The position numbers and the translations under genes were made by a program. Under the pieces are notes generated by a model. That model saw only the letters and a list, made by a program, of their open reading frames with translations. It searched no databases and had not been told where the DNA came from. A DNA stretch of 64,000 nucleotides from a phage. Shown here piece by piece: positions 643 through 64,000 of the stretch (within the stretch, counting starts at the first letter, position 1; each line of letters opens with the position of its first letter). The stretch lies in sequence record NC_135728.1; one strand, given 5' to 3'.

Positions 643-774
643 AGCTGCCTCCTCTTCAAGTTATAGAAAAACTCACTGTATCGCTTTGTAACGAGCTTTT
701 CTATCAAACTGGTGCGATTGCCTTACTTGGTATAGTTTATATGGCTGTGGAGCGATTTAGGGGCCTCATTGTCC

Positions 775-1010
775 GTTTCCACACATAAACTTTATCCAAA
801 CTCGCGCGGGAATCTCTCAACCGACTCCTTACGGCGCTGGCAAGCTTTCGTCGGTGGTCCACATTAGTGCTCGGCCTTTGGCCTGCGCTATCGCTTCGCT
901 CCCACACATGTTAACAGACCTGCATGTATGCACTTCTGTTATTGTGTGCACTATGGAGGCCCGGCATCTCGCCCCTCGTAGGCGAGTGCCAATGAAGGGC
1001 CGACACTACC
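775..1010. other. GC-rich structured non-coding island (candidate ncRNA or regulatory RNA)
   Basis: About 235 nt with no ORF in any frame, visibly GC-richer than its surroundings; nested complementary segments, e.g. GGCCC..CTCGCC-N7-GGCGAG..GGGCC. Confidence 0.3.
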
Positions 1011-1029: not shown

Positions 1030-1100
1030 AAAACATGGTACTTAGGATCTAGTATATTCTACATAAGTTAAGTATATGTACTTAGTACCATAAGTACTAG
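1030..1100. repeat. AT-rich dyad-symmetry element
   Basis: GATCTAGTA ... TACTAGATC inverted repeat and GTACTTAG direct repeats in an AT-rich stretch. Confidence 0.4.
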
Positions 1101-1145
1101 ATCTTTTATTTTTTATTATTTAGTTATTTTAGTTATATTCTTTAT

Positions 1146-2262: not shown

Positions 2263-2673
2263 TCATTTAAGTTTAATGCAGTTTTTAAGCTGGCGTTCCA
2301 TACGATCCACAACCTTGTCTGGAACATCATGAATGCTTTTATTACCGTGGCGGTTTTCAACCACGATTACGGTATAACTATACCCATGACTGATTGCCAT
2401 GTCAACATATTCCTGCACATGTTTTTCTTTTGTAAACGTATTACTTACCACGATACGGTCGTATCCCATACACATCATATCTTCTACGTTATCTTTGCAC
2501 CATTTTGCTGCGAGTGTTACTTTACTTGCATCCCAGTTGTAATTGCCGTCATCGTCATACCAAAACATGTCATTCTCAAAATGTGGATACAGACCTTCTA
2601 AAGATAGCGCATTTGCCAGTGTTGATTTGCCAGACCCTGGCAGACCACGCACGATATATAGCATTTTAGACAT
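2263..2673 (-). CDS. P-loop kinase, polynucleotide 5'-kinase-like
   Basis: Walker A GLPGSGKST right after the start, as in T4 Pnk kinase domain; GGAGGA RBS before ATG at 2673. Confidence 0.6.
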   Translation of the reverse strand: MSKMLYIVRGLPGSGKSTLANALSLEGLYPHFENDMFWYDDDGNYNWDASKVTLAAKWCKDNVEDMMCMGYDRIVVSNTFTKEKHVQEYVDMAISHGYSYTVIVVENRHGNKSIHDVPDKVVDRMERQLKNCIKLK

Positions 2674-2701
2674 AGCAATCCTCCGTTTTAATTTTAATGA
2701 T

Positions 2702-2730
2702 AGTATACCTAACTGTTTTGTTAATTTCAA
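2702..2730 (-). promoter_or_regulatory. sigma70-like promoter (TTGAAA-17-TATACT) for the kinase/phosphatase operon
   Basis: Read on minus strand just upstream of the kinase RBS. Confidence 0.45.
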
Positions 2731-2791
2731 GTGTTGACACCAGGTTGTTTGTGTGGCAGGATAGACTGACAAAATGACAAATGAGGAACGT

Positions 2792-3709
2792 ATGATGAAG
2801 TATTTTAATGCAGATGACCTAGTAGACAAAGGTCTTGTAACCAGTCGGTATTATCCAGATCTTGGATTAAAGATCTATAAATATGCCAGAAAAGTATTCT
2901 ACAACAATCTGTGGCATTTGTCTCCGCGTTTACTGGAGTGCCGAGGTATTGTTGTTGGCAATGAGGGGAATGTTGTGGCATGGCCTTTCACAAAAGTATT
3001 CAACTTAGGAGAAAACTCCACCAACCTACCGGACAGTAAACTTGTTACTGCGGTAGAGAAAAAGAACGGATTCCTCGGTGTGGTATCATCTCATAAAGGT
3101 GAACTATTGTTCTCAACAACCGGGTCTCTTGATTCCCCATATTGTAACCTCGCAAAAGAAACCATCAGGGAGCAATGTGGTAATTTAGATCTTATCAAGA
3201 AGGTTATGGGCAATGAAAACATGACATTCATGTTTGAAATTTGCCACCCTTCAGATCCGCATATTGTTCAGGAAGATCATGGCGCATATTTGATAGGTTG
3301 CAGATATAATGATTCTGGAATAATGCTACCAGAAGCAGCTTTAGATGGGATTGCCAAATACCTTGGTGCAAAACGTCCTCACACTGTGCGTGAAATTCCG
3401 TTCAGCTATGCAAAAGAATTAGCTGCAGAAACAAGAGGTGAAGGGTATATGATTCGTAAGCCTTACTACCCTTATGATCTGCAGCTGAAGATCAAGTCTC
3501 CATACTATCTGGCACGGAAGGCAGTAATGAGGGGTAAAGCTTGGAAGATTTGGGATGATGATATCTTTAAACGTGTTGACGAAGAGTTTTACGGTATGGT
3601 AAAATTTATTCGTAGCAACTATACAGAAGATGTGTGGAATTGCTTATTAGAGCAGGAGCGTCGTGAGATACTGGACTACTATTTCCACAACGAGGACTAT
3701 ATGCAATGA
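2792..3709 (+). CDS. ATP-dependent RNA ligase-like nucleotidyltransferase (Rnl1/Trl1-type KxNG motif)
   Basis: Motif I-like EKKNGFLGVV (cf. Trl1 KANG, T4 Rnl1 KEDG); GAGGAA RBS before ATG 2792; divergent from the kinase/phosphatase genes. Confidence 0.55.
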   Translation: MMKYFNADDLVDKGLVTSRYYPDLGLKIYKYARKVFYNNLWHLSPRLLECRGIVVGNEGNVVAWPFTKVFNLGENSTNLPDSKLVTAVEKKNGFLGVVSSHKGELLFSTTGSLDSPYCNLAKETIREQCGNLDLIKKVMGNENMTFMFEICHPSDPHIVQEDHGAYLIGCRYNDSGIMLPEAALDGIAKYLGAKRPHTVREIPFSYAKELAAETRGEGYMIRKPYYPYDLQLKIKSPYYLARKAVMRGKAWKIWDDDIFKRVDEEFYGMVKFIRSNYTEDVWNCLLEQERREILDYYFHNEDYMQ

Positions 3710-4056
3710 AGAAGTGGATTGTGTGGCTTGATGATTTTAGAGATCCGTCAGATTATGGACTCCCAGACGCTCTGTGGCTAAAGAATTCTTCTGAGTTTAT
3801 GGATTTTCTTAATGATAAGAGAAAGCTCTACAGACGCGTATCTGAGTGGTATTTTGACAATGATCTAGGTGAAGTGCTTGAAGGGTACGACTGCTTCTCT
3901 GCGCTAGAGGAGAAATTTGTATTCGGAAAGCCACCACTTATTGACAACGTGATTATTTTCGTGCATACTTCTAATCCATCGGCAGCTCGTAAATTTATGC
4001 TTGCTGCTGACTCATTCAAGAAGTTTGGAATAGAGATCAAACAAAACATCTACTAA
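3706..4056 (+). CDS. hypothetical protein (116 aa)
   Basis: ATGA start/stop overlap with the ligase gene; no recognised motif. Confidence 0.5.
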   Translation: MKKWIVWLDDFRDPSDYGLPDALWLKNSSEFMDFLNDKRKLYRRVSEWYFDNDLGEVLEGYDCFSALEEKFVFGKPPLIDNVIIFVHTSNPSAARKFMLAADSFKKFGIEIKQNIY

Positions 4057-4064
4057 GGACATTT

Positions 4065-4826
4065 ATGCGACGACTGATTATTATCTCCGGTGCTGGTTTG
4101 AGCGCTGAATCTGGTATTCCAACTTTCCGATCTGGTAGCACTGCAATGTGGGAGAATTTCAGCATCGATGAGGTGTGCAACATCCACACCTTTGCCAAGA
4201 ACTACTATAAGGTGCATGACTTTTACAATGCACGTCGTGTAGCTCTGGGCAGTGTTGATCCTAACCTTGCACATCTTCGGATCGCTGAGTGGTATTCCCG
4301 CTGGCCTGGTCGTGTGATCAACCTTACCACCAATGTAGATGATTTGCTGGAGCGTGCTGGTGTAAAACATGAAGATATTTTACATGTCCACGGGTATTTG
4401 CCTGAAATCACCTACGAAGATGCTGAAGGTAACGATGTAATTAAAAATATCGGATACACGGAGGTAGATACAGGCAAGTATACCTGGGTTAAGCCTAATG
4501 TAGTGTTCTTCGGTGAGGTTGCTCCTAAGTATACAGACATGTATGACCTGTTGACATCTCTCACAAGCAATGATATGGTGATCCTGGTAGGTTGTTCTAA
4601 CACAGTTATTAATTTTAACTGGGAATTGTTTCCTGCTACTTGTAAAGGCACAAAACTGCTGATTGTAAACAAGTATGACTCGCAGAGTGCAGATGGAAGT
4701 GGCATTTCACGTAGCGACCTTTATCAATATGAGGATCGCGGGATCCCTGTATGGTTTAACGGTGCTGTTGACGCTTTCTCTGATAAAGCATTTATTGAAA
4801 CTGTAGAAAACTTTATGGAACTTTAA
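4065..4826 (+). CDS. Sir2-family NAD-dependent deacylase / ADP-ribosyltransferase homolog
   Basis: GAGLSAESGIPTFR (sirtuin GAGxSxxxGIPxFR), TTNVDDL, catalytic-His region LHVHGY, VVFFGE; no Zn-ribbon cysteines. Confidence 0.8.
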   Translation: MRRLIIISGAGLSAESGIPTFRSGSTAMWENFSIDEVCNIHTFAKNYYKVHDFYNARRVALGSVDPNLAHLRIAEWYSRWPGRVINLTTNVDDLLERAGVKHEDILHVHGYLPEITYEDAEGNDVIKNIGYTEVDTGKYTWVKPNVVFFGEVAPKYTDMYDLLTSLTSNDMVILVGCSNTVINFNWELFPATCKGTKLLIVNKYDSQSADGSGISRSDLYQYEDRGIPVWFNGAVDAFSDKAFIETVENFMEL

Positions 4827-39354: not shown

Positions 39355-39660
39355 GTGCACAATGAAAACATTGTCCGAAGTTTTGGTGGTGATCCTGATG
39401 ATCATTACGTCCATAGCGGCTGTTGCCGGAATACTCACGGGTGGAACATGATAAACACACATGCATCTGAAGAGACATCCAAAGGAGTGACTATATGTCC
39501 CTTGACTGAGCCAGTGCAAGAGGAAAACTTCGATTCTGAAGATTCTCCATCTTTGCTCCAGGTAGATCCTGAGGCTGATGACCTAACGTGGGAAGACATC
39601 GTAGATATCTGGTTCTCTATTATGCCTGAGCACGAAGAGTTCAGGGGTGGTAGACTATGA
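39355..39660 (+). CDS. hypothetical acidic protein (start uncertain: GTG 39355 or ATG 39448)
   Basis: GGAGAA RBS before GTG; alternative ATG 39448 overlaps the stop of the micro-ORF below. Confidence 0.4.
   Translation: MHNENIVRSFGGDPDDHYVHSGCCRNTHGWNMINTHASEETSKGVTICPLTEPVQEENFDSEDSPSLLQVDPEADDLTWEDIVDIWFSIMPEHEEFRGGRL
39362..39451 (+). CDS. alternative hydrophobic micro-ORF, 29 aa
   Basis: GGAGTG RBS; MKTLSEVLVVILMIITSIAAVAGILTGGT; mutually exclusive with the GTG-39355 reading. Confidence 0.3.
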   Translation: MKTLSEVLVVILMIITSIAAVAGILTGGT

Positions 39661-39997: not shown

Positions 39998-40346
39998 CAC
40001 ACAATTAGTTGCCCGGCTAAAGTGCTGGGAGCACCCATAACACATCTTTCAACTAAATTTCCTACCACCACAATCACTTACCTCCCACACATGACTGTTT
40101 GCTTGTTTAGTGAGCAGTCATGCCTTGACATTCTTGCCTATCCTGATAAAATTAAGTTCTTCTCTTTTCTTTTACCGAGTAATTCGGGTTTTCTGTTCTC
40201 TTCGGTTTGAAGGGGTATGGAGATACACCTGAGTGAACAGGGTGAACAACCGAACCATTGGCTATGGCATTAGCATGGCGAAGCGGACGGGTGACGAAAG
40301 AGGGGCCGGAGGACACCAGTCACTGCCATATGATATATGGGTGATA

Positions 40347-40865
40347 ACCTGAAGAGTCTGAATAAGTGTTTAAGTACCAGTCAGAGGAAAAGGTGAATGG
40401 TAGCCGAAGGGGGAGGGGGGTTACCTGCTTCTGTAAACATGCATCTGAAATACTACTTTAGATAACCTGAACCTGCCTTTCTGACAAATATTCCCTATTA
40501 AACTTGAATTATTTATAGAAAATACCACAACACCACTTAAGTCTTTGATTTTACACACAAATCTTACAGATATTAAACCTCTCTATTTAACATACCTGTA
40601 ACATATACTATACTCCACCTGTCTGATCAATTTCCCCAACTACATCCCCATATTTTCCCTGTCTGTACTACCCCTGCCCCGCCGGGAGTCCCGTCATATC
40701 TGGCTTTCCAGCAAATATCACACCCACAAATATCATCACCTGAAGAGGGTTTCATCCCATAATACATGCCTTACCTGAAGAGCGCTTCATATACCCCGTA
40801 AATTTTTTAATTGACCCCCTCCCCGCCGCCGGAGGGGTTGGCTTTTCCCACACAAACCTGAAGAG
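40347..40865. repeat. dispersed direct repeats of ACCTGAAGAG (4 copies)
   Basis: Copies at about 40347, 40738, 40773, 40856; ACCTGAAC variant at about 40463. Confidence 0.5.
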
Positions 40866-41425
40866 TCAGCCAGAAATATCTGAACAGCCAGTTATACCAC
40901 GATTTTGTGCTTGTCCTACAGGAGTGCTTCCCTGTCAGGAGCCGGTAGCGACTGGAGTGCTGCCAGGCGGACGAAATGGGAATACTTCTCATTCTTATAA
41001 CAATTCTCAAATATCGAGGCAGTGAGGCAAATTAATAGGTGAGGCCGTTCACACAGTGGCACAACATTTGCAACCTATCTTGTGGGATTGAATGAGAATA
41101 CCTATCATTGTGAGAACTGTTATCATTACGGGCAATTTAACATAATACCCATTATGCGCACCACTGGCGATACATACAGGGATTTATAACATGAGTTACT
41201 GTTTACGTATATAACAATTATATTTCTTACTATTTGTGTGGGATATAGTTAGCAGCCGATAGATTAGATATTGACCTGCAGACTTCCAACCGTCTAGACG
41301 TCTAAACGCCCACACAACAAGGTTTATACATACATTACTGAATGTAAACAGGGCCGCAAAAATGCTACCATACAAGATTGTAAATTTTTCATGCAGCACT
41401 TGACAAAGAGGAGAAAAACTTGTCT

Positions 41426-41505
41426 GACACTTTAGACACAATAGTGACATAATATGACACCTTTGACACACTGGACACATTAAACATAATTGACATGCCT
41501 GACTG
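41426..41505. repeat. iteron-like array of GACA(C/T) repeats phased every 9-11 bp
   Basis: Eight copies: GACAC, GACACA, GACAT, GACAC, GACACA, GACACA, GACAT, GACT. Confidence 0.6.
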
Positions 41506-41540
41506 TTTACATAGCTAACTATTTACTAAAAAATGATAAG

Positions 41541-41852
41541 CCATGCCATTCGTTTGCATGATAAAGATTAGCAAGTTAATAATCTTTCGCTGGCTATGCC
41601 AGGTGACCTTTGGTCACCCCTTCGGGTGTTTCTATGACATAATATAAAAGCAGGGCAACTATTAGCAGATCATAGTTGCCTTGCTTGTTAACACCCTTGA
41701 GACGAAGGCTTTGCCTGAGTTTATGTCATGATTAACTAAATACAAGGCAACTATGATCTGATTAATAGTTTGCAGACAAACTATCACGGGGGTGATGGTT
41801 ACTGCTTTTATATTATGTCGCGACTCCGTCGCGCCATGCCATTCGTTTGCAT
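41541..41852. repeat. nested repeat complex: 19-bp direct repeat, 18-bp inverted repeat and internal palindromes
   Basis: CCATGCCATTCGTTTGCAT at 41541 and 41834; GACATAATATAAAAGCAG (41636) inverted at 41802; GGTGACC-TTT-GGTCACC; GGCAACTAT-N9-ATAGTTGCC. Confidence 0.6.
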
Positions 41853-42477
41853 AGTTGCCTTATTGTTACGAATAAAACAATTGCATTGTTAATGATTTCT
41901 TATCTTTCTCTTAGTCATCTAATGATTCCAGTCAGTCTAGTAATGTACAGTAAACATTAGACGACTAAAGATTTCCCTGTTTATGATAACTCACCGTGAT
42001 AATTTCAGGCTGTTTACTAAAAATGTTGACACCTAAGCTGATTTATGTTATGCAGTTTACACGAATAATTATTTTATGCAGGTATTGACTATTCCGTTAT
42101 TCTATGGTTGGAATAAATACTTAGCAGACTATAGAATGGTGAGCGTACGTAAATTCTGAGATCTGGCGGCTATAGTTATACTCGATTTTTCACGTAGAAC
42201 ACGCTTTTGTGAGTGTGTAAGTGTATGACTTATAAAGATTTTTAGTTGTTGACAAGATATTGAAGATGTGCATCAGGTTAAATTTTGTGCAATAGCGGCA
42301 TTACGTGCAATTCTGAGAGAGAAAACGGGTAAAAATGGCCCTGCTACCACAAGATGAAAGATTATGCAATAGTTATTTTTATATGTATATTTGTACAGTA
42401 GGGTTAATTGCTGGCTTGTTGATTATTCCACTTGCCAGGTGGGGCCGTTTGTGGTAGGAGAAATACAGACAAAAAGA

Positions 42478-42508
42478 AAGGGGCCTTTTAAAGCCCCTGA
42501 TAGTTTAG
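42478..42508 (-). terminator. rho-independent terminator of the leftward block
   Basis: On minus strand GGGGC-loop-GCCCC followed by TTTCTTTTT, just past gene 42517-42936. Confidence 0.6.
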
Positions 42509-42516
42509 TTAAGAAA

Positions 42517-42936
42517 TTATAATGATTCGTATATTTCAAAAATCCGATTTGCCAGGTCGTTACGGTAGCGGAATTTTTCCTCACGTTTGATCATCAGATC
42601 TTTAAAGCCATATTCTTTAAGCACTTCATTAACTTTATGGCGGCATACCTTCATATTATCTTGTGCGTCACCAATAAACTTGTTGCTATGGTGCATGGCT
42701 TTAATTTCTTCTTCCAGGACCAGGGCAACTATGCGGACCGGATCAAGCTGATAGGCGGTAACATCAATGCGGCATTGTAAACGGCTTTTTACGTCTGCCA
42801 CCGGATATACTGCAACCTCTTCCCCGTCAACATTGACAATAATTAGTTTACCATCGATTTCGAATCCTTTCGCCGCCGGACCGTGACAAAAAGCGTTATC
42901 AAAGCTATATGCCGGATTATTAGATTTAATGTTCAT
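42517..42936 (-). CDS. hypothetical protein
   Basis: Track ORF; AGAGGT RBS. Confidence 0.5.
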   Translation of the reverse strand: MNIKSNNPAYSFDNAFCHGPAAKGFEIDGKLIIVNVDGEEVAVYPVADVKSRLQCRIDVTAYQLDPVRIVALVLEEEIKAMHHSNKFIGDAQDNMKVCRHKVNEVLKEYGFKDLMIKREEKFRYRNDLANRIFEIYESL

Positions 42937-43678: not shown

Positions 43679-43896
43679 AGTGTTTTCCTCTCTTCTGGTT
43701 GTTGTGTGGGCACCTTTGCCCCTTCAAGATAAATGTTACCCCACCCCCTGGCAGATGTCAACGGTTTTTATAGTTCTTATATGACAGGCAGGCCTGGTGA
43801 TTGTCTCCCCCTGTTCCCAAGTGCCGCCCGTTTAATAAGAATAGCAAAAGGGGCCGAACAAGTCAACCCCAAAATCAGTACCAAAACACTTTTTAT

Positions 43897-44794: not shown

Positions 44795-45010
44795 CTATGC
44801 TGTACGCTCAACTATAACAACGGTTTGGGGGATCTCCCCTTCCACCACTAGTAAGGCCTTTTTCTGCGTGATAGATATCTTTACCCGTTGCAGCGTGGCG
44901 GTGAAGTCTTTCATTTCGTCACGCGGTGTTTTAGTGCAGTACCAGATCTCAGGCTTGCCGATCTGTAAGTTGCGTAAAAATTCTGTTTTGCCCGTTTTGT
45001 TAGTGATCAT
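44795..45010 (-). CDS. hypothetical protein
   Basis: GGTGAGG RBS. Confidence 0.45.
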   Translation of the reverse strand: MITNKTGKTEFLRNLQIGKPEIWYCTKTPRDEMKDFTATLQRVKISITQKKALLVVEGEIPQTVVIVERTA

Positions 45011-48834: not shown

Positions 48835-48922
48835 GATGTTTTCCTCTTTGTTTTGTGTGGGGCAAACGTCTTGCCCCTTGAGTTTTAATATAGCAGGTTT
48901 TTAGGTTATTGCAACACTTTAT

Positions 48923-52899: not shown

Positions 52900-53860
52900 T
52901 GTAAAATTATTTTTTGGGTAGAATTCTCCAGCCGCCACCCCTGCCAGGTTTGCAAGCTTTCACTCTCCCACCTGGTCAGTTAGGTCCTGCTAGGGCTGGC
53001 CCCGCCAGGTTGCAGCAGTTGACGCACTATGTTAGAAAAATTTTTTGAAAAGTGTTGACAACGGCCCCACCAGGTGGCACAATATACATATCGAAAGGAC
53101 GGCAGGCACCGGTGACGGGGGAGACAACCACCGGGGATGGGCGCTGCATAAAATGAGAACGGTTATCATTATCATTTAAAAATTTATGCAAAAAGTCCTT
53201 GCTTTCTTTGTCCTGTGTGATACTATAATAACAAGCCGGGGCAGCAGGGGCCGGGAGACAATCACCGGGCCTGCCCGTTATTCTGCAAACGAGAATGATT
53301 ATCATTCAAAATTCTAAATGAGAACTCCTCGCATTTAATAAATTTAATTAGCATGCTAATTACCATCCGTAACAATTTCCTATAAAACAGTATCCACTAA
53401 AATATTCCCATATAGAAATTTTAAAAATCCATTTCTGAAAACGAAAAATCGATTTCGTCCCCAAAAATTTCAGGTCGAGAGCCGGAACGATTTCCAGAAA
53501 ATCCGATTCAGAAAACGAAAAACAGATCGAGTACTGAGAAATTTATCGAGAAAAATTTTCAGAAAATTCAATCTTTGAAATGAAAAACAGATCGAGTACC
53601 TGGAAAGCTGCACCGCAACTTCAAGATAGTGGTTAGATTGTTACCATAGAAGGTCAAGGGTAAGTGGAGGGAGTTATAGTAGAAGGATGTGAGTATGTGC
53701 AGGAAATCTGTAATGGTGGTCTGGAATATGGTGCAAACGATAGGATGGGTGATTCAGCTTGTCGCGCCCACTCTGAAAAAATCCATTTTAGTTTTCGATC
53801 CATTTTCTGATTTTCTAAGGATTTTAAAATATCCAGCCCGGTGAAATATCAAAAGGAGGA
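52900..53860. repeat. about 1 kb ORF-poor region with several direct-repeat families
   Basis: CC..CCAGGT-type motifs; two related 80-nt units containing GGGAGACAA(C/T)CACCGGG and GAGAA(C/T)G(G/A)TTATCATT; three GAAAACGAAAAACAGATCGAGTAC-type repeats about 70 bp apart; AAATCCATTTTAG repeats. Confidence 0.55.
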
Positions 53861-62207: not shown

Positions 62208-62483
62208 CAATAGTTCAGGTAGGTCGTTAAGCTACCCCGCACCATTACGTGCATAGCCATACGTTTTCACGTAGGATCGGACCATCTCATATTCCTATGA
62301 TAAGCAACCACAGGAATCCTCCCATTTCGACCGCACTTGCTGGTCTACTTCCTTTCGGAATGGCCTCTGAGCGTTCGCTCTTTTGAGCGCTTCGTTGCGG
62401 ATTACCTTGCCATAAGGTTTAGGCTTCCCGCAGTTAAAGAGGTTATTCGACATAGATTACTCTATGAAGCCACAATGTTATTT
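62208..62483 (-). ncRNA. putative group I self-splicing intron (276 nt) in the DNA polymerase gene
   Basis: Interrupts the ORF between the H and D codons of motif C; exon ends in U, intron ends in G; GUGG guide 11 nt into intron can pair with exon CCAU; P-like CUGCGGGAAG, Q-like AAUCCGCAAC, P7 strands GACCA / UGGUC. Confidence 0.65.
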
Positions 62484-64000
62484 ATGGTAATAAATAATAC
62501 GACGAACACCTTCATCGTACCACCCACGCTTCACCATTTGGTGGTGCATGAGTATCCCAACTAAGTCACACAGCGATGCACCACCATTTTGTTGGTATGC
62601 ATTAAGTAAAGAGTGTTTAGATCTGGTCCAGATAGCATGACCATCGAAAGAGTAGATAAACTTCTTACCTGTTGCTTCCCAGAATTTCTCCAGATCCTCT
62701 TTGCGCCCCTTAAGACCGGGGTTGGCATCCCAAAGTGCATCTATTACCCTTTGCCCCAACTCTGGAGAGATGTCCAACATATCTGCAACTTTATCTTTTT
62801 GTGCCCCGTACATAACACCATACGTGATAGGTTTACCGTCGTTACGGGACACCTCTCTGCCTGCTACTTTTGTATATGCCTCGGCATTGTTTTGGTGTGC
62901 GTCTCCGTTACTTACAACATCATAATACAGGCCGTTGTCGAACTCAAAGGCACCCCAAGCCCCGATAAGCTGCTCTAAGTTGGACCCGTCAATACCGATC
63001 TGAAAGTATCCGGGAGGAACACCCCATAGACTACGCATCTCTTTACCCATAACCACTTTAGGAGATGGTTTAGGCATGTTTGCACAAATACTGTGTTTCT
63101 GTCTGGAAGTGTTTGTTAGCCCAGAACTTTTAGCAGGAAGCTTATGGTCAATCTTCAAACGTGGGTGATTAAGAAGACCAGTATCAACCTTATCCTCCTT
63201 GATTGGGTCAAGGACCGATCTGCGGTTTCGCAATGATAACCACAAGACGATATCTTTAGCCATCTCTCCGTTCAATTTTTCAAGATTCGGACACAGGTGT
63301 CCAAACGTATCTTTCAGTTGCGGAGAAGTAATAAGTGCCCTGGCTTTTCTACGTATTTTCCCGAACACTTCCTTTTTAATCCTTTCGGAGTTAGGAAAGC
63401 TTCGGAACTTGTGCACGGTTGTCTGGAACTTAGCATCAGTTTTGTTCCAGAAGTTGATAATTAGGTCACAATACTCTGACTCTAAAAGCTCGTCCATATA
63501 AGCATATACTCGTGCATCAACATCTGCATCAGGTAGAGCTTTCTTCTTGCTGTCTTTAGTTACATCCTTAGTTCTCCACATTGTCGGGAGCCAGCCAGCG
63601 CTGATCAGATACCGCTTAATGTCGTCCTGATTGCTGATTTTCATAGGTATCTTGCAGTCCGGCATTCGCTTCTGCTGTAGATCACTTATTGCCTGATCCA
63701 TCAGCTCTTTAGGCAAAGGGTGTGGTGTGGAAGTTCCCTTAATATAGCCTCTCAAGAAATCAGCCATCTTATCGGGGTCTTTGCAGCCCATCTCTTCACA
63801 CCATTTTATCCCCATCTTGCTGACATCCCCTGTAGAGGTAAATGCTCTCTTAGGCGGGGCTTTGAACTCTAAAGCGCTCATGTCTACAGGATAGCCAAGC
63901 TTATCTTTTAACCATTTCCAACCATTATTAGAGATTGTCCCGTCTTGGTTAAACGGCTTTTCAGGGAACTTGGGCCGCTGAGACATTGACAGCTCTTTTA
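62484..64000 (-). CDS. DNA polymerase family A, exon 1 (partial; N-terminus may lie beyond the window)
   Basis: Motif B-like KPITYGVMYGAQ; ends ...VRRIIYYH (cf. Pol I RMIMQVH-DE); reading frame stays open upstream of the track start at 63986. Confidence 0.8.

Follow-up and report, generated by a model that had tools for sequence, protein, structure and literature searches.

What is a conspicuously GC-rich segment with no credible gene doing in the genome of an rV5-like phage? The window analysed here, 64,000 nucleotides (nt) of phage sequence record NC_135728.1, belongs to the genus Vequintavirus, and a reading of the sequence alone had singled out positions 775-1010 as a structured non-coding island. 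The GC-richness on which that reading drew is real: GC content is 55.1% at 775-1010 and 58.3% at 803-1006, against 42.7% in the whole window, 42.9% in the left flank and 31.4% in the right flank. Just 0.05% of 236-nt segments are as GC-rich as 775-1010, and the sole other such place is 52909-53167. Here, we find that the island is a genuine, conserved, structured non-coding element that is mis- or unannotated in public records. At a probability of roughly 0.45, our best explanation is that it forms the GC-rich hairpin arm of the Vequintavirus origin module, acting as a folded single strand, most probably RNA.

Comparison with related genomes showed that the element is conserved and that its structure is kept by compensatory change. 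A blastn search with 650-1300 matched 118 phage records, all rV5-like, over the full length at 90-99% identity. All 118 Vequintavirus records contain the element, no other record of the phage collection does, and the phage version is nearly invariant over these genomes. Eighteen of the records (MG0656xx) are named Campylobacter phage; they are 93-99% identical to the E. coli rV5-like locus and look like contamination or mislabelling of deposits. Scans of viral contigs recovered one rV5-like contig and nothing more. E. coli chromosomes, searched by blastn, contain no match to the island and nothing similar to it among chromosomal RNAs, and an origin from host sequence was dismissed on that ground.

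More divergent versions were sought by blastn against E. coli genomes and plasmids and by a 26-mer scan of metagenome contigs. Partial homologues lie in unannotated DNA of non-mobilizable E. coli plasmids of about 13 kb (records NZ_CP020521.1, NZ_CP035869.1, CP148565.1, NZ_CP043822.1, which is 39.6 kb with three copies, and, more distantly, CP134895.1), and the 26-mer scan added two plasmid-type metagenome contigs of 13.9-15.5 kb (L070 and L072) and four phage contigs. In an 18-mer scan of genome contigs, 59 of 59 matches were due to chance, with flanks at random identity. Homology with the plasmid versions begins near 710 and stops at about 1006. The boundaries first proposed, 775-1010, accordingly shift to about 710-1006.

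The region 740-1020 folds better than shuffled sequences on both strands (z about -2.8 to -3.0). Its conserved core (803-865, plus strand) consists of a leader, CGCGCGGGAGACTC, a helix that we call S2, a loop, TCCTTMCGGCGCTGGCAAGCTTTC, and the closing segment GGTCCACATT; phage and plasmid share the sequence frame CGCGCGGGAGACTC..CTCCTTMCGGCGCTGGCAAGCTTTCG..GGTCCACATT, with a mean column identity of 91% across phages and plasmids, and a covariance model built on the core scores a single hit in each genome, at 94-97 bits. Helix S2 (820-825/850-855) reads ACCGAC/GTCGGT in phages and GCTGCC/GGCAGC in plasmids, so that three of its six pairs are changed on both sides (A:T to G:C, C:G to T:A and A:T to C:G). 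In the alignment, 98% of S2 cells are paired; sliding the partner strand by 1-3 columns lowers this to 38-74% and leaves no both-side change at all. The covariation score of S2 was matched in 0 of 500 shuffles. The complementary segments quoted in the sequence-only reading likewise exist, and together they form one nested hairpin, T1, at 958-1001, in which GGCCC (958-962) pairs with GGGCC (997-1001), GGCA (963-966) with TGCC (987-990) and CTCGCC (968-973) with GGCGAG (981-986). T1 folds at -28.1 kcal/mol (z = -3.7, with none of 200 shuffles as good). With the register adjusted by eye, it differs between phage and plasmid by two compensatory pairs, 964:989 and 971:983, both G:C to T:A. By our own count, the compensatory changes in S2 and T1 make up 10 of the approximately 19 phage-plasmid differences in both blocks. 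Five pairs in two helices, changed on both sides with pairing retained between phage and plasmid homologues, bear out the description of the island as structured more strongly than folding energy does by itself.

S2 closes a 24-nt loop (826-849) with a single variable position, 831 (A or C). The leader stretch GCGC GGGA (804-811) is complementary to the start of this loop, TCCT..GCGC (826-837), and we propose that the two could pair to make an H-type pseudoknot; the stem remains a proposal because its bases never vary. In CP134895.1, the leader and the closing CTCCACATT are kept around a differing hairpin, GTCCGGAT..ATCCGGAC, whose loop AGTCTC is again complementary to the leader, here GAGACT.

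Beyond the core, the element is built as an array of variable hairpin cassettes, separated by the CA-rich 8-nt motif CCCACACA and followed by a terminal hairpin. The core is closed by a degenerate copy of this punctuation, TCCACATT (858-865, plus strand), which is kept in all phage and plasmid versions. In the window there follow, on the same strand, cassette P1 (866-900; GGCC-TTT-GGCC within AGTGC/GCGCT), CCCACACA itself (901-908), cassette P2 (909-954; an inverted repeat, AACAGA..TCTGTT, around TGCAT-GT-ATGCA) and the terminal module T1 (955-1006). Both P1 and P2 are phage-specific. P1, in whose place the plasmids have a cassette M1, shows no covariation within phages; P2 is variable, being partly deleted in phage Pr121LW and rewritten in a divergent phage contig, and has one compensatory A:T to C:G change at 918:935. 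In the plasmid arrays CCCACACA separates every cassette, and arrays differ by whole cassettes bounded by it. After the core, phages of the window's type carry P1, P2 and T1; NZ_CP020521.1 carries M1, M2, M3 and T1; CP148565.1 has M1, M3 and T2; NZ_CP035869.1 has M1, M2 and T2; NZ_CP043822.1 has M1 and T2; L070 has M1, M2, M4, M5 and T2; and L072 has M1, M2, M4 and T2. In CP134895.1 the variant core precedes M6, M5', M4', T2' and then a further triple hairpin. As a shared block, T1 occurs in all phages and, among the plasmids, in NZ_CP020521.1 only. The other plasmids end in T2, a 10-11-bp hairpin followed by TTTCATTT, and a terminator scan calls a plus-strand intrinsic terminator there in five of the seven plasmid versions. 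M2 and M5 are each made of three abutting mini-hairpins with stems of 3-7 bp and loops of 3-4 nt, and M5 of L070 differs from M5' of CP134895 by four compensatory pairs, as read from the sequences. We could find no described equivalent of this cassette architecture, with distinct hairpin units and a single 8-nt separating motif, and literature on the CCCACACA motif yielded nothing on this locus. Neither strand of the window or of the plasmids holds a stretch of at least 14 nt complementary to the cassettes, and a role as antisense guides was rejected on this ground.

The separating motif is not confined to the island. CCCACACA has 13 copies in the window against 2.4 expected, a number that none of 100 shuffles reaches, and 8 of the 13 lie outside open reading frames (ORFs) on a crude ORF map. 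At 43703 and 48854 it stands in sense orientation in a 5' untranslated region (UTR), just behind a promoter-like site and a GC-rich 5' hairpin that contributes the CCC with its 3' arm. The presence of CCCACACA in two 5' UTRs after promoter-like sites indicates a role at the RNA level. The two early-type genes concerned (43680-43760 and 48835-48920, both minus strand) have a common 5' UTR design, in which the hairpin-plus-CCCACACA unit of the island recurs: a sigma-70-like promoter, a hairpin GGGGCA..TGCCCC, ACACAA-rich unstructured RNA and a Shine-Dalgarno sequence.

Upstream of the core, a further block (712-775, plus strand) consists of GCRATTGC, 33 nt and ATTTAGGGGSC, and is also found in the plasmid versions by alignment, with equal spacing as counted by eye. 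This block could belong to the element as its 5' portion or have a control function. A sigma-54-like reading of it fits the plasmids by eye and was rejected when the phage spacing failed.

Could the island instead be a small gene? Taken literally, the claim that it holds no ORF in any frame fails, as there are ORFs of 31-56 amino acids (aa) with GTG or TTG starts. The 56-aa ORF (737-907, minus strand, GTG start) is the hypothetical rv5_gp074 of the rV5 record. At least three records, including rV5, label part of the island a hypothetical protein, in favour of a coding function; no inspected record annotates it as a structured element. However, this ORF begins with GTG, it is absent from the divergent phage, from Alma and from every plasmid version, and conservation follows the helices and loops and no reading frame. 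Because none of the short island ORFs is preserved in divergent phages or plasmid homologues, the substance of the claim stands: there is no credible gene here. We therefore consider it very improbable that the island is a small protein-coding gene, or that its GC-richness arose by chance, given a GC content within the top 0.05% of segments.

Where the element sits suggests what it may do. It lies between two minus-strand genes, one for a 192-aa protein (64-642) and one for a 116-aa helix-turn-helix (HTH) protein (1303-1653). The latter matches Pfam HTH_36/DUF6945 and a PHROGs 'replication initiation protein' family, and records name it a transcriptional regulator or a replication initiation protein. 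Between the island and this gene, 1011-1300 has 31% GC, with T-runs and palindromes at 1035-1136 in an AT-rich stretch that we place at about 1010-1140. Its palindromic part (1035-1122, plus strand; arms 1035-1045/1081-1091 and 1046-1054/1095-1103, T-run 1104-1122) is a candidate DNA-unwinding region and a possible plus-strand terminator. Next come four 21-bp iterons (1146-1229; period 21 and 4.0 copies in Tandem Repeats Finder, and detected as inverted repeats), each containing the 17-bp palindrome TGTCCGT-ATC-ACGGACA; several phage records annotate them as repeat_region. Thus, tandem iterons stand beside an initiator-like gene, with an AT-rich region between them and a GC-rich segment, as expected of an iteron origin. 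Iterons, AT-rich DNA and GC-rich hairpins in this order are the layout of the RK2, pPS10 and IncQ (RSF1010) origins. The cumulative GC-skew minimum is at about 2.7 kb, 1.7 kb from the island, and coincides with a switch in gene orientation. No DnaA box (TTWTNCACA) occurs within 9 kb of the island, and such boxes are not enriched across the window. In the literature, we found neither a replication origin nor a non-coding RNA of rV5-like phages.

The plasmids repeat this arrangement with different parts. Beyond their array, along the same strand, come first AT-rich or C/G-run DNA and next GGAAATATTTACCGGGGT-like iterons, so that the order of island, AT-rich DNA and iterons is common to both replicons; the iterons and Rep proteins of phage and plasmids are unrelated. 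Two replicons that differ in initiator and in iterons have thus retained one core in an equivalent position. This is our chief ground for linking the element to the origin module, and the island likely adjoins the replication origin of rV5-like E. coli phages.

The plasmids that share the core form a family (NZ_CP020521.1, which is our L067, together with L068, L069, L006, L083, L070 and L072) of circular, non-mobilizable molecules of about 13-14 kb. NZ_CP020521.1 encodes major capsid, tape measure, baseplate/tail-fibre-like and tail-completion proteins, a number of HTH proteins and, beside iterons of its own, a 303-aa protein that weakly matches replication-initiator families; portal and terminase are not annotated. 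Because they encode structural proteins and have no annotated portal or terminase, we regard these plasmids as satellite-like, and they may be extrachromosomal phage satellites. We found no paper on them. The satellite capsid protein is about 22-25% identical to capsids of 140-150-kb phages and matches no rV5-like record, so a helper relationship lacks support from protein similarity.

Phage and plasmids also have other short non-coding segments in common. A 51-nt motif of three abutting mini-hairpins (CTGGC-TAT-GCCAG, GTGAC-CTTTG-GTCAC and CCC-TTC-GGG), with the architecture of M2 and M5, is 82-88% identical between phage and plasmid; it lies at 41583-41633 (plus strand) and 39457-39522 (minus strand) in the window, at 10884-10934 in L067, at 573-623 in L070 and at 3312-3363 and 10116-10166 in L072. 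By eye, it has compensatory changes from CTGGC/GCCAG to CTGCC/GGCAG and from CCC/GGG to TCC/GGA. Three more shared segments, TAAACTCGTGCAAG..GTTAA, GATATTTGAGAATTGTTA and AGATATCTATCAC, are found at 41688-41723, 40992-41015 and 44858-44882 in the window (all minus strand), at 1608-1645 in L070, at 519-542 in L067 and at 1540-1590 in L083. In CP134895, TAAACTCGTGCAAG..GTTAA stands directly upstream of the core.

We propose that the phage origin module would comprise a Rep-like HTH protein, four palindromic iterons, an AT-rich stretch and then the hairpin element, which would act in single-stranded, folded form, most probably as RNA and with a length of about 210-320 nt. The core, a 5' leader and a 6-bp helix closing the near-invariant 24-nt loop, possibly as an H-type pseudoknot, may be a handle bound by a factor common to the phage and the satellite-like plasmids; the latter, although equipped with a Rep and iterons of their own, still have this core alongside. 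This factor could be a replication or RNA-binding protein of phage or host, and the cassettes would be accessory and exchangeable. That the element is transcribed, acts as RNA and plays a part in replication or in satellite-helper interplay, we infer from sequence.

The same hairpins could, however, act as DNA. The island would then be a single-stranded-DNA or cruciform origin element, with hairpins that extrude when the iteron-bound initiator melts the AT-rich region and that provide priming or helicase-loading signals like ssiA/ssiB of IncQ or a G4-type complementary-strand origin; in the plasmids, the core would have been retained so that it can attract the same primase or helicase. Alternatively, it would be a plain G+C-rich flank, as in RK2 oriV and pPS10. 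The canonical order of iterons (1146-1229), AT-rich DNA (1010-1140) and hairpins (803-1006), repeated in the plasmids, suits such a function. So do the 3-4-nt loops, several of them C-GNA-G, the z values of -3 to -5.5 obtained with DNA parameters on both strands, slightly better than with RNA parameters, and the similar triple mini-hairpins that lie outside the putative transcript, beside other repeat arrays. It is also consistent with the lack of a promoter, described below. Against it, T2 with its T-run is a textbook intrinsic terminator placed between array and iterons in five plasmid versions, CCCACACA is sense-oriented in the 5' UTRs at 43703 and 48854, a near-invariant 24-nt loop that might form a pseudoknot would be more usual in RNA, and DnaA boxes are missing nearby. 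On balance, action as DNA, the main rival to our explanation, is possible but rather unlikely.

If the element is an RNA, which strand carries it? For the plus strand, 3' ends with a hairpin and T-run occur in three lineages: T2, the divergent phage (CCTTC..GAAGG, after T1) and the AT-rich hairpin of the window (1046-1122), the last of which is not called by the terminator scan. The CA-rich linkers are unable to pair on the plus strand, as would suit a plus-strand RNA, and U.G pairs on this strand in P1 (868:887) and M1 become C.A mismatches on the minus strand. Folding energy was uninformative for choosing a strand, the mini-hairpins being strand-symmetric.

The minus strand has its own case, in which the island would be a structured intercistronic spacer or leader of an early operon running from a promoter at 1717-1688 through the 116-aa gene to the 192-aa gene, and would shield an untranslated gap of about 660 nt from Rho or RNases or control the downstream genes. 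No minus-strand promoter was found between 1466 and 643, so that gene 64-642 requires read-through, and its mRNA probably does traverse the island from 1717-1688. In five of six plasmid versions, the G/U-rich minus strand is also the more stable one, by 8-19 kcal/mol, though only because its linkers are G/U-rich. In the plasmids, however, a strong promoter of the minus-strand operon lies downstream of the island, in NZ_CP020521.1 a minus-strand terminator separates iterons from island, T2 stops plus-strand transcripts only, and the genes downstream differ between phage and plasmids. These points, with the P1 and M1 mismatches, make a minus-strand function quite improbable.

Several observations weigh against the plus-strand RNA hairpin arm that we favour. 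No sigma-70-like promoter was found on either strand at 643-1250 of the phage, and candidates in the plasmids, read by eye, are weak or extended -10-like. As gene 64-642 lacks a sigma-70-like promoter, the minus strand is probably transcribed across the phage island. Three variable pairs (820:855, 810:827 and 865:890) are A.C on the plus strand and G.U on the minus strand, as a minus-strand RNA would have them. The mini-hairpins, which are near-perfect palindromes, fold as well in DNA as in RNA and on one strand as on the other. In an energy model limited to nested pairs, the core alone folds no better than shuffles, and the proposed pseudoknot stem is invariant. The core seems to be dispensable, because the related plasmid CP134895 has a different one. 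Lastly, covariation within phages alone is not significant, because the sequences are too alike, so the statistical support comes down to essentially one phage-versus-plasmid split and one plasmid-versus-plasmid comparison. All the same, action as RNA, which our preferred explanation shares with the minus-strand function and with the decoy function discussed below, is probable when these are taken together, with the plus strand somewhat favoured, and the small RNA first suggested for this locus remains plausible.

Is the island a member of a known family? A scan of the 4227 covariance models of Rfam 15 found nothing at the gathering threshold in 775-1010 or in the plasmid versions. At E <= 10, apart from noise, it gave a partial rli43 match of 27 bits (gathering threshold 100), most of which falls on the AT-rich region and iterons. 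A Y-RNA-like resemblance of TGGTCCACATTAGTG was dropped, as Rfam lends it no support. The scan upholds the judgement of the sequence-only reading that no RNA family could be assigned, and the island belongs to none of the families tested and is new to Rfam. The suggestion of a mobile intron-like remnant, made in the same reading, found no support: at E <= 10 the island still gave no hit to any group I or group II intron model. The same scan detected a full-length group I catalytic intron elsewhere, at 62258-62493 on the minus strand (RF00028, 64.7 bits, E = 4e-14). The absence of tRNA features was confirmed by ARAGORN, which found 0 tRNA or transfer-messenger RNA genes in the whole window. Tandem Repeats Finder found no repeats in 700-1010, reporting only the iterons and T-rich runs.

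By layout, the closest likeness is to the IncQ (RSF1010) oriV with ssiA/ssiB, to RK2 oriV and to pPS10, which combine iterons, an AT-rich stretch and GC-rich hairpin DNA beside a small winged-helix/HTH initiator gene. Unlike these, the island is modular and much longer (200-300 nt); its 24-nt loop is near-invariant, and most plasmid versions end with an intrinsic terminator. It also recalls ColE1 RNA II and lambda oop in having a putative structured non-coding transcript beside, and pointing at, an origin, and ori lambda in having four dyad-symmetric iterons followed by AT-rich DNA. In contrast to RNA II and oop, neither an Rfam match nor an antisense partner or promoter was identified for the island, and priming by read-through is unlikely because the plasmid terminator sits between the RNA and the iterons. 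We file the island as a variant of the origin-associated structured element. A further likeness is to the bacterial interspersed mosaic elements (BIMEs) built from repetitive extragenic palindromic (REP) sequences, which are also mosaics of GC-rich palindromic units with short conserved linkers in non-coding DNA, with related units dispersed in the same genome. BIMEs, however, are highly repeated and mostly located at gene 3' ends, whereas the island array occurs once per genome, is built on a unique conserved core and is unlike REP in sequence.

An RNA precedent exists within the rV5-like phages themselves. PhiTE carries a functional non-coding pseudoknot RNA locus, pseudo-ToxI, an antitoxin mimic processed from repeats (PMC3475682). 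The island resembles pseudo-ToxI and ToxI in its small structures or pseudoknots, short recurring punctuation, terminator (in most plasmid versions), gain and loss of units and rV5-like host phage. It differs in that a cognate toxin cuts the ToxI units, which are identical tandem repeats of 36 nt, whereas the island cassettes are all different (29-90 nt) and without sequence similarity; neither identical tandem repeats of about 34-36 nt nor a flanking toxin endoribonuclease gene was found. This precedent favours a trans-acting anti-defence or decoy RNA array, in which each cassette, as a small structured RNA set free or exposed between CCCACACA sites, would serve as mimic or sponge of a host factor such as a toxin, a nuclease or an RNA-binding protein; phage and satellites would both need the array, and its proximity to the origin would be incidental. 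Otherwise near-identical plasmids differ by having or lacking whole cassettes, as expected of a locus in an arms race, and the neighbourhood includes polynucleotide kinase/phosphatase, RNA ligase 1, Sir2 and tRNAs. However, the cassettes are not tandem copies of one unit and resemble no E. coli chromosomal RNA, the 14-nt search found nothing complementary to them in phage or plasmid, no processing enzyme was identified, and the phage version is nearly invariant in 118 genomes, unlike an arms race. Thus, we think a decoy array quite unlikely.

A bolder proposal is that the island is the founding member of a new modular class of non-coding RNA, with a pseudoknotted handle and exchangeable, CCCACACA-punctuated mini-hairpin cassettes, common to Vequintavirus and plasmid satellites, that would plug in cis or in trans into helper replication or RNA machinery or compete for it. 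The motifs at 41583-41633, 41688-41723 and 40992-41015 would then belong to the same communication system. This idea is rather doubtful. Literature on non-coding RNA, satellites and transcriptomes of rV5 and Vequintavirus yielded nothing on this locus. Phages of the rV5 type are widely isolated and used as therapeutic or biocontrol candidates, and the element marks their likely origin module; if the link between phage and plasmids is true, it would provide a new E. coli helper-satellite pair with a defined sequence for the interaction.

The 116-aa HTH protein is restricted to exactly the same 118 phage records as the island; because of this, no distant orthologous locus was obtained, and none was retrievable from other genera of Vequintavirinae. 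The 192-aa protein, downstream of the island on the minus strand, has no Pfam match, and further along that strand, beyond the left end of the window, related records contain a tRNA cluster. On the other side of the island, related records have genes for a phosphoesterase, polynucleotide kinase/phosphatase, RNA ligase 1 and Sir2. In the window, a cluster of RNA-repair or counter-defence type at 2263-4826, with a polynucleotide kinase/3'-phosphatase-like ATPase, an RNA ligase 1-like protein and a Sir2-family protein, adjoins the origin-like module.

Elsewhere in the window, the large, mostly non-coding region 40000-42520 has a strong promoter (TTGACA-N17-TAAAAT, at about 40125-40153) followed by a GC-rich segment at 40200-40440, and has no Rfam match; it holds four or five copies of ACCTGAAGAG, four CCCACACA motifs, a duplicated GCCATGCCATTCGTTTGCAT and, at 41420-41500, about eight GACAY repeats at a spacing of about 10 bp. 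The region 52900-53310, the only other place in the window with a GC content of at least 55%, contains two paralogous, promoter-driven GC-rich units. One, at about 53055, has TTGACA-N17-CAATAT followed by ..CACCGGTGACGGGGGAGACAACCACCGGGG.., and the other, at about 53220, has TACTATAAT followed by ..GGCCGGGAGACAATCACCGGGCC; both terminate in GAGAAYGRTTATCATT and are possibly small RNA genes. In the same region, the loop of a hairpin at 52945-52978 contains GCAAGCTTTC, a 10-mer that also occurs in the near-invariant loop of the island.

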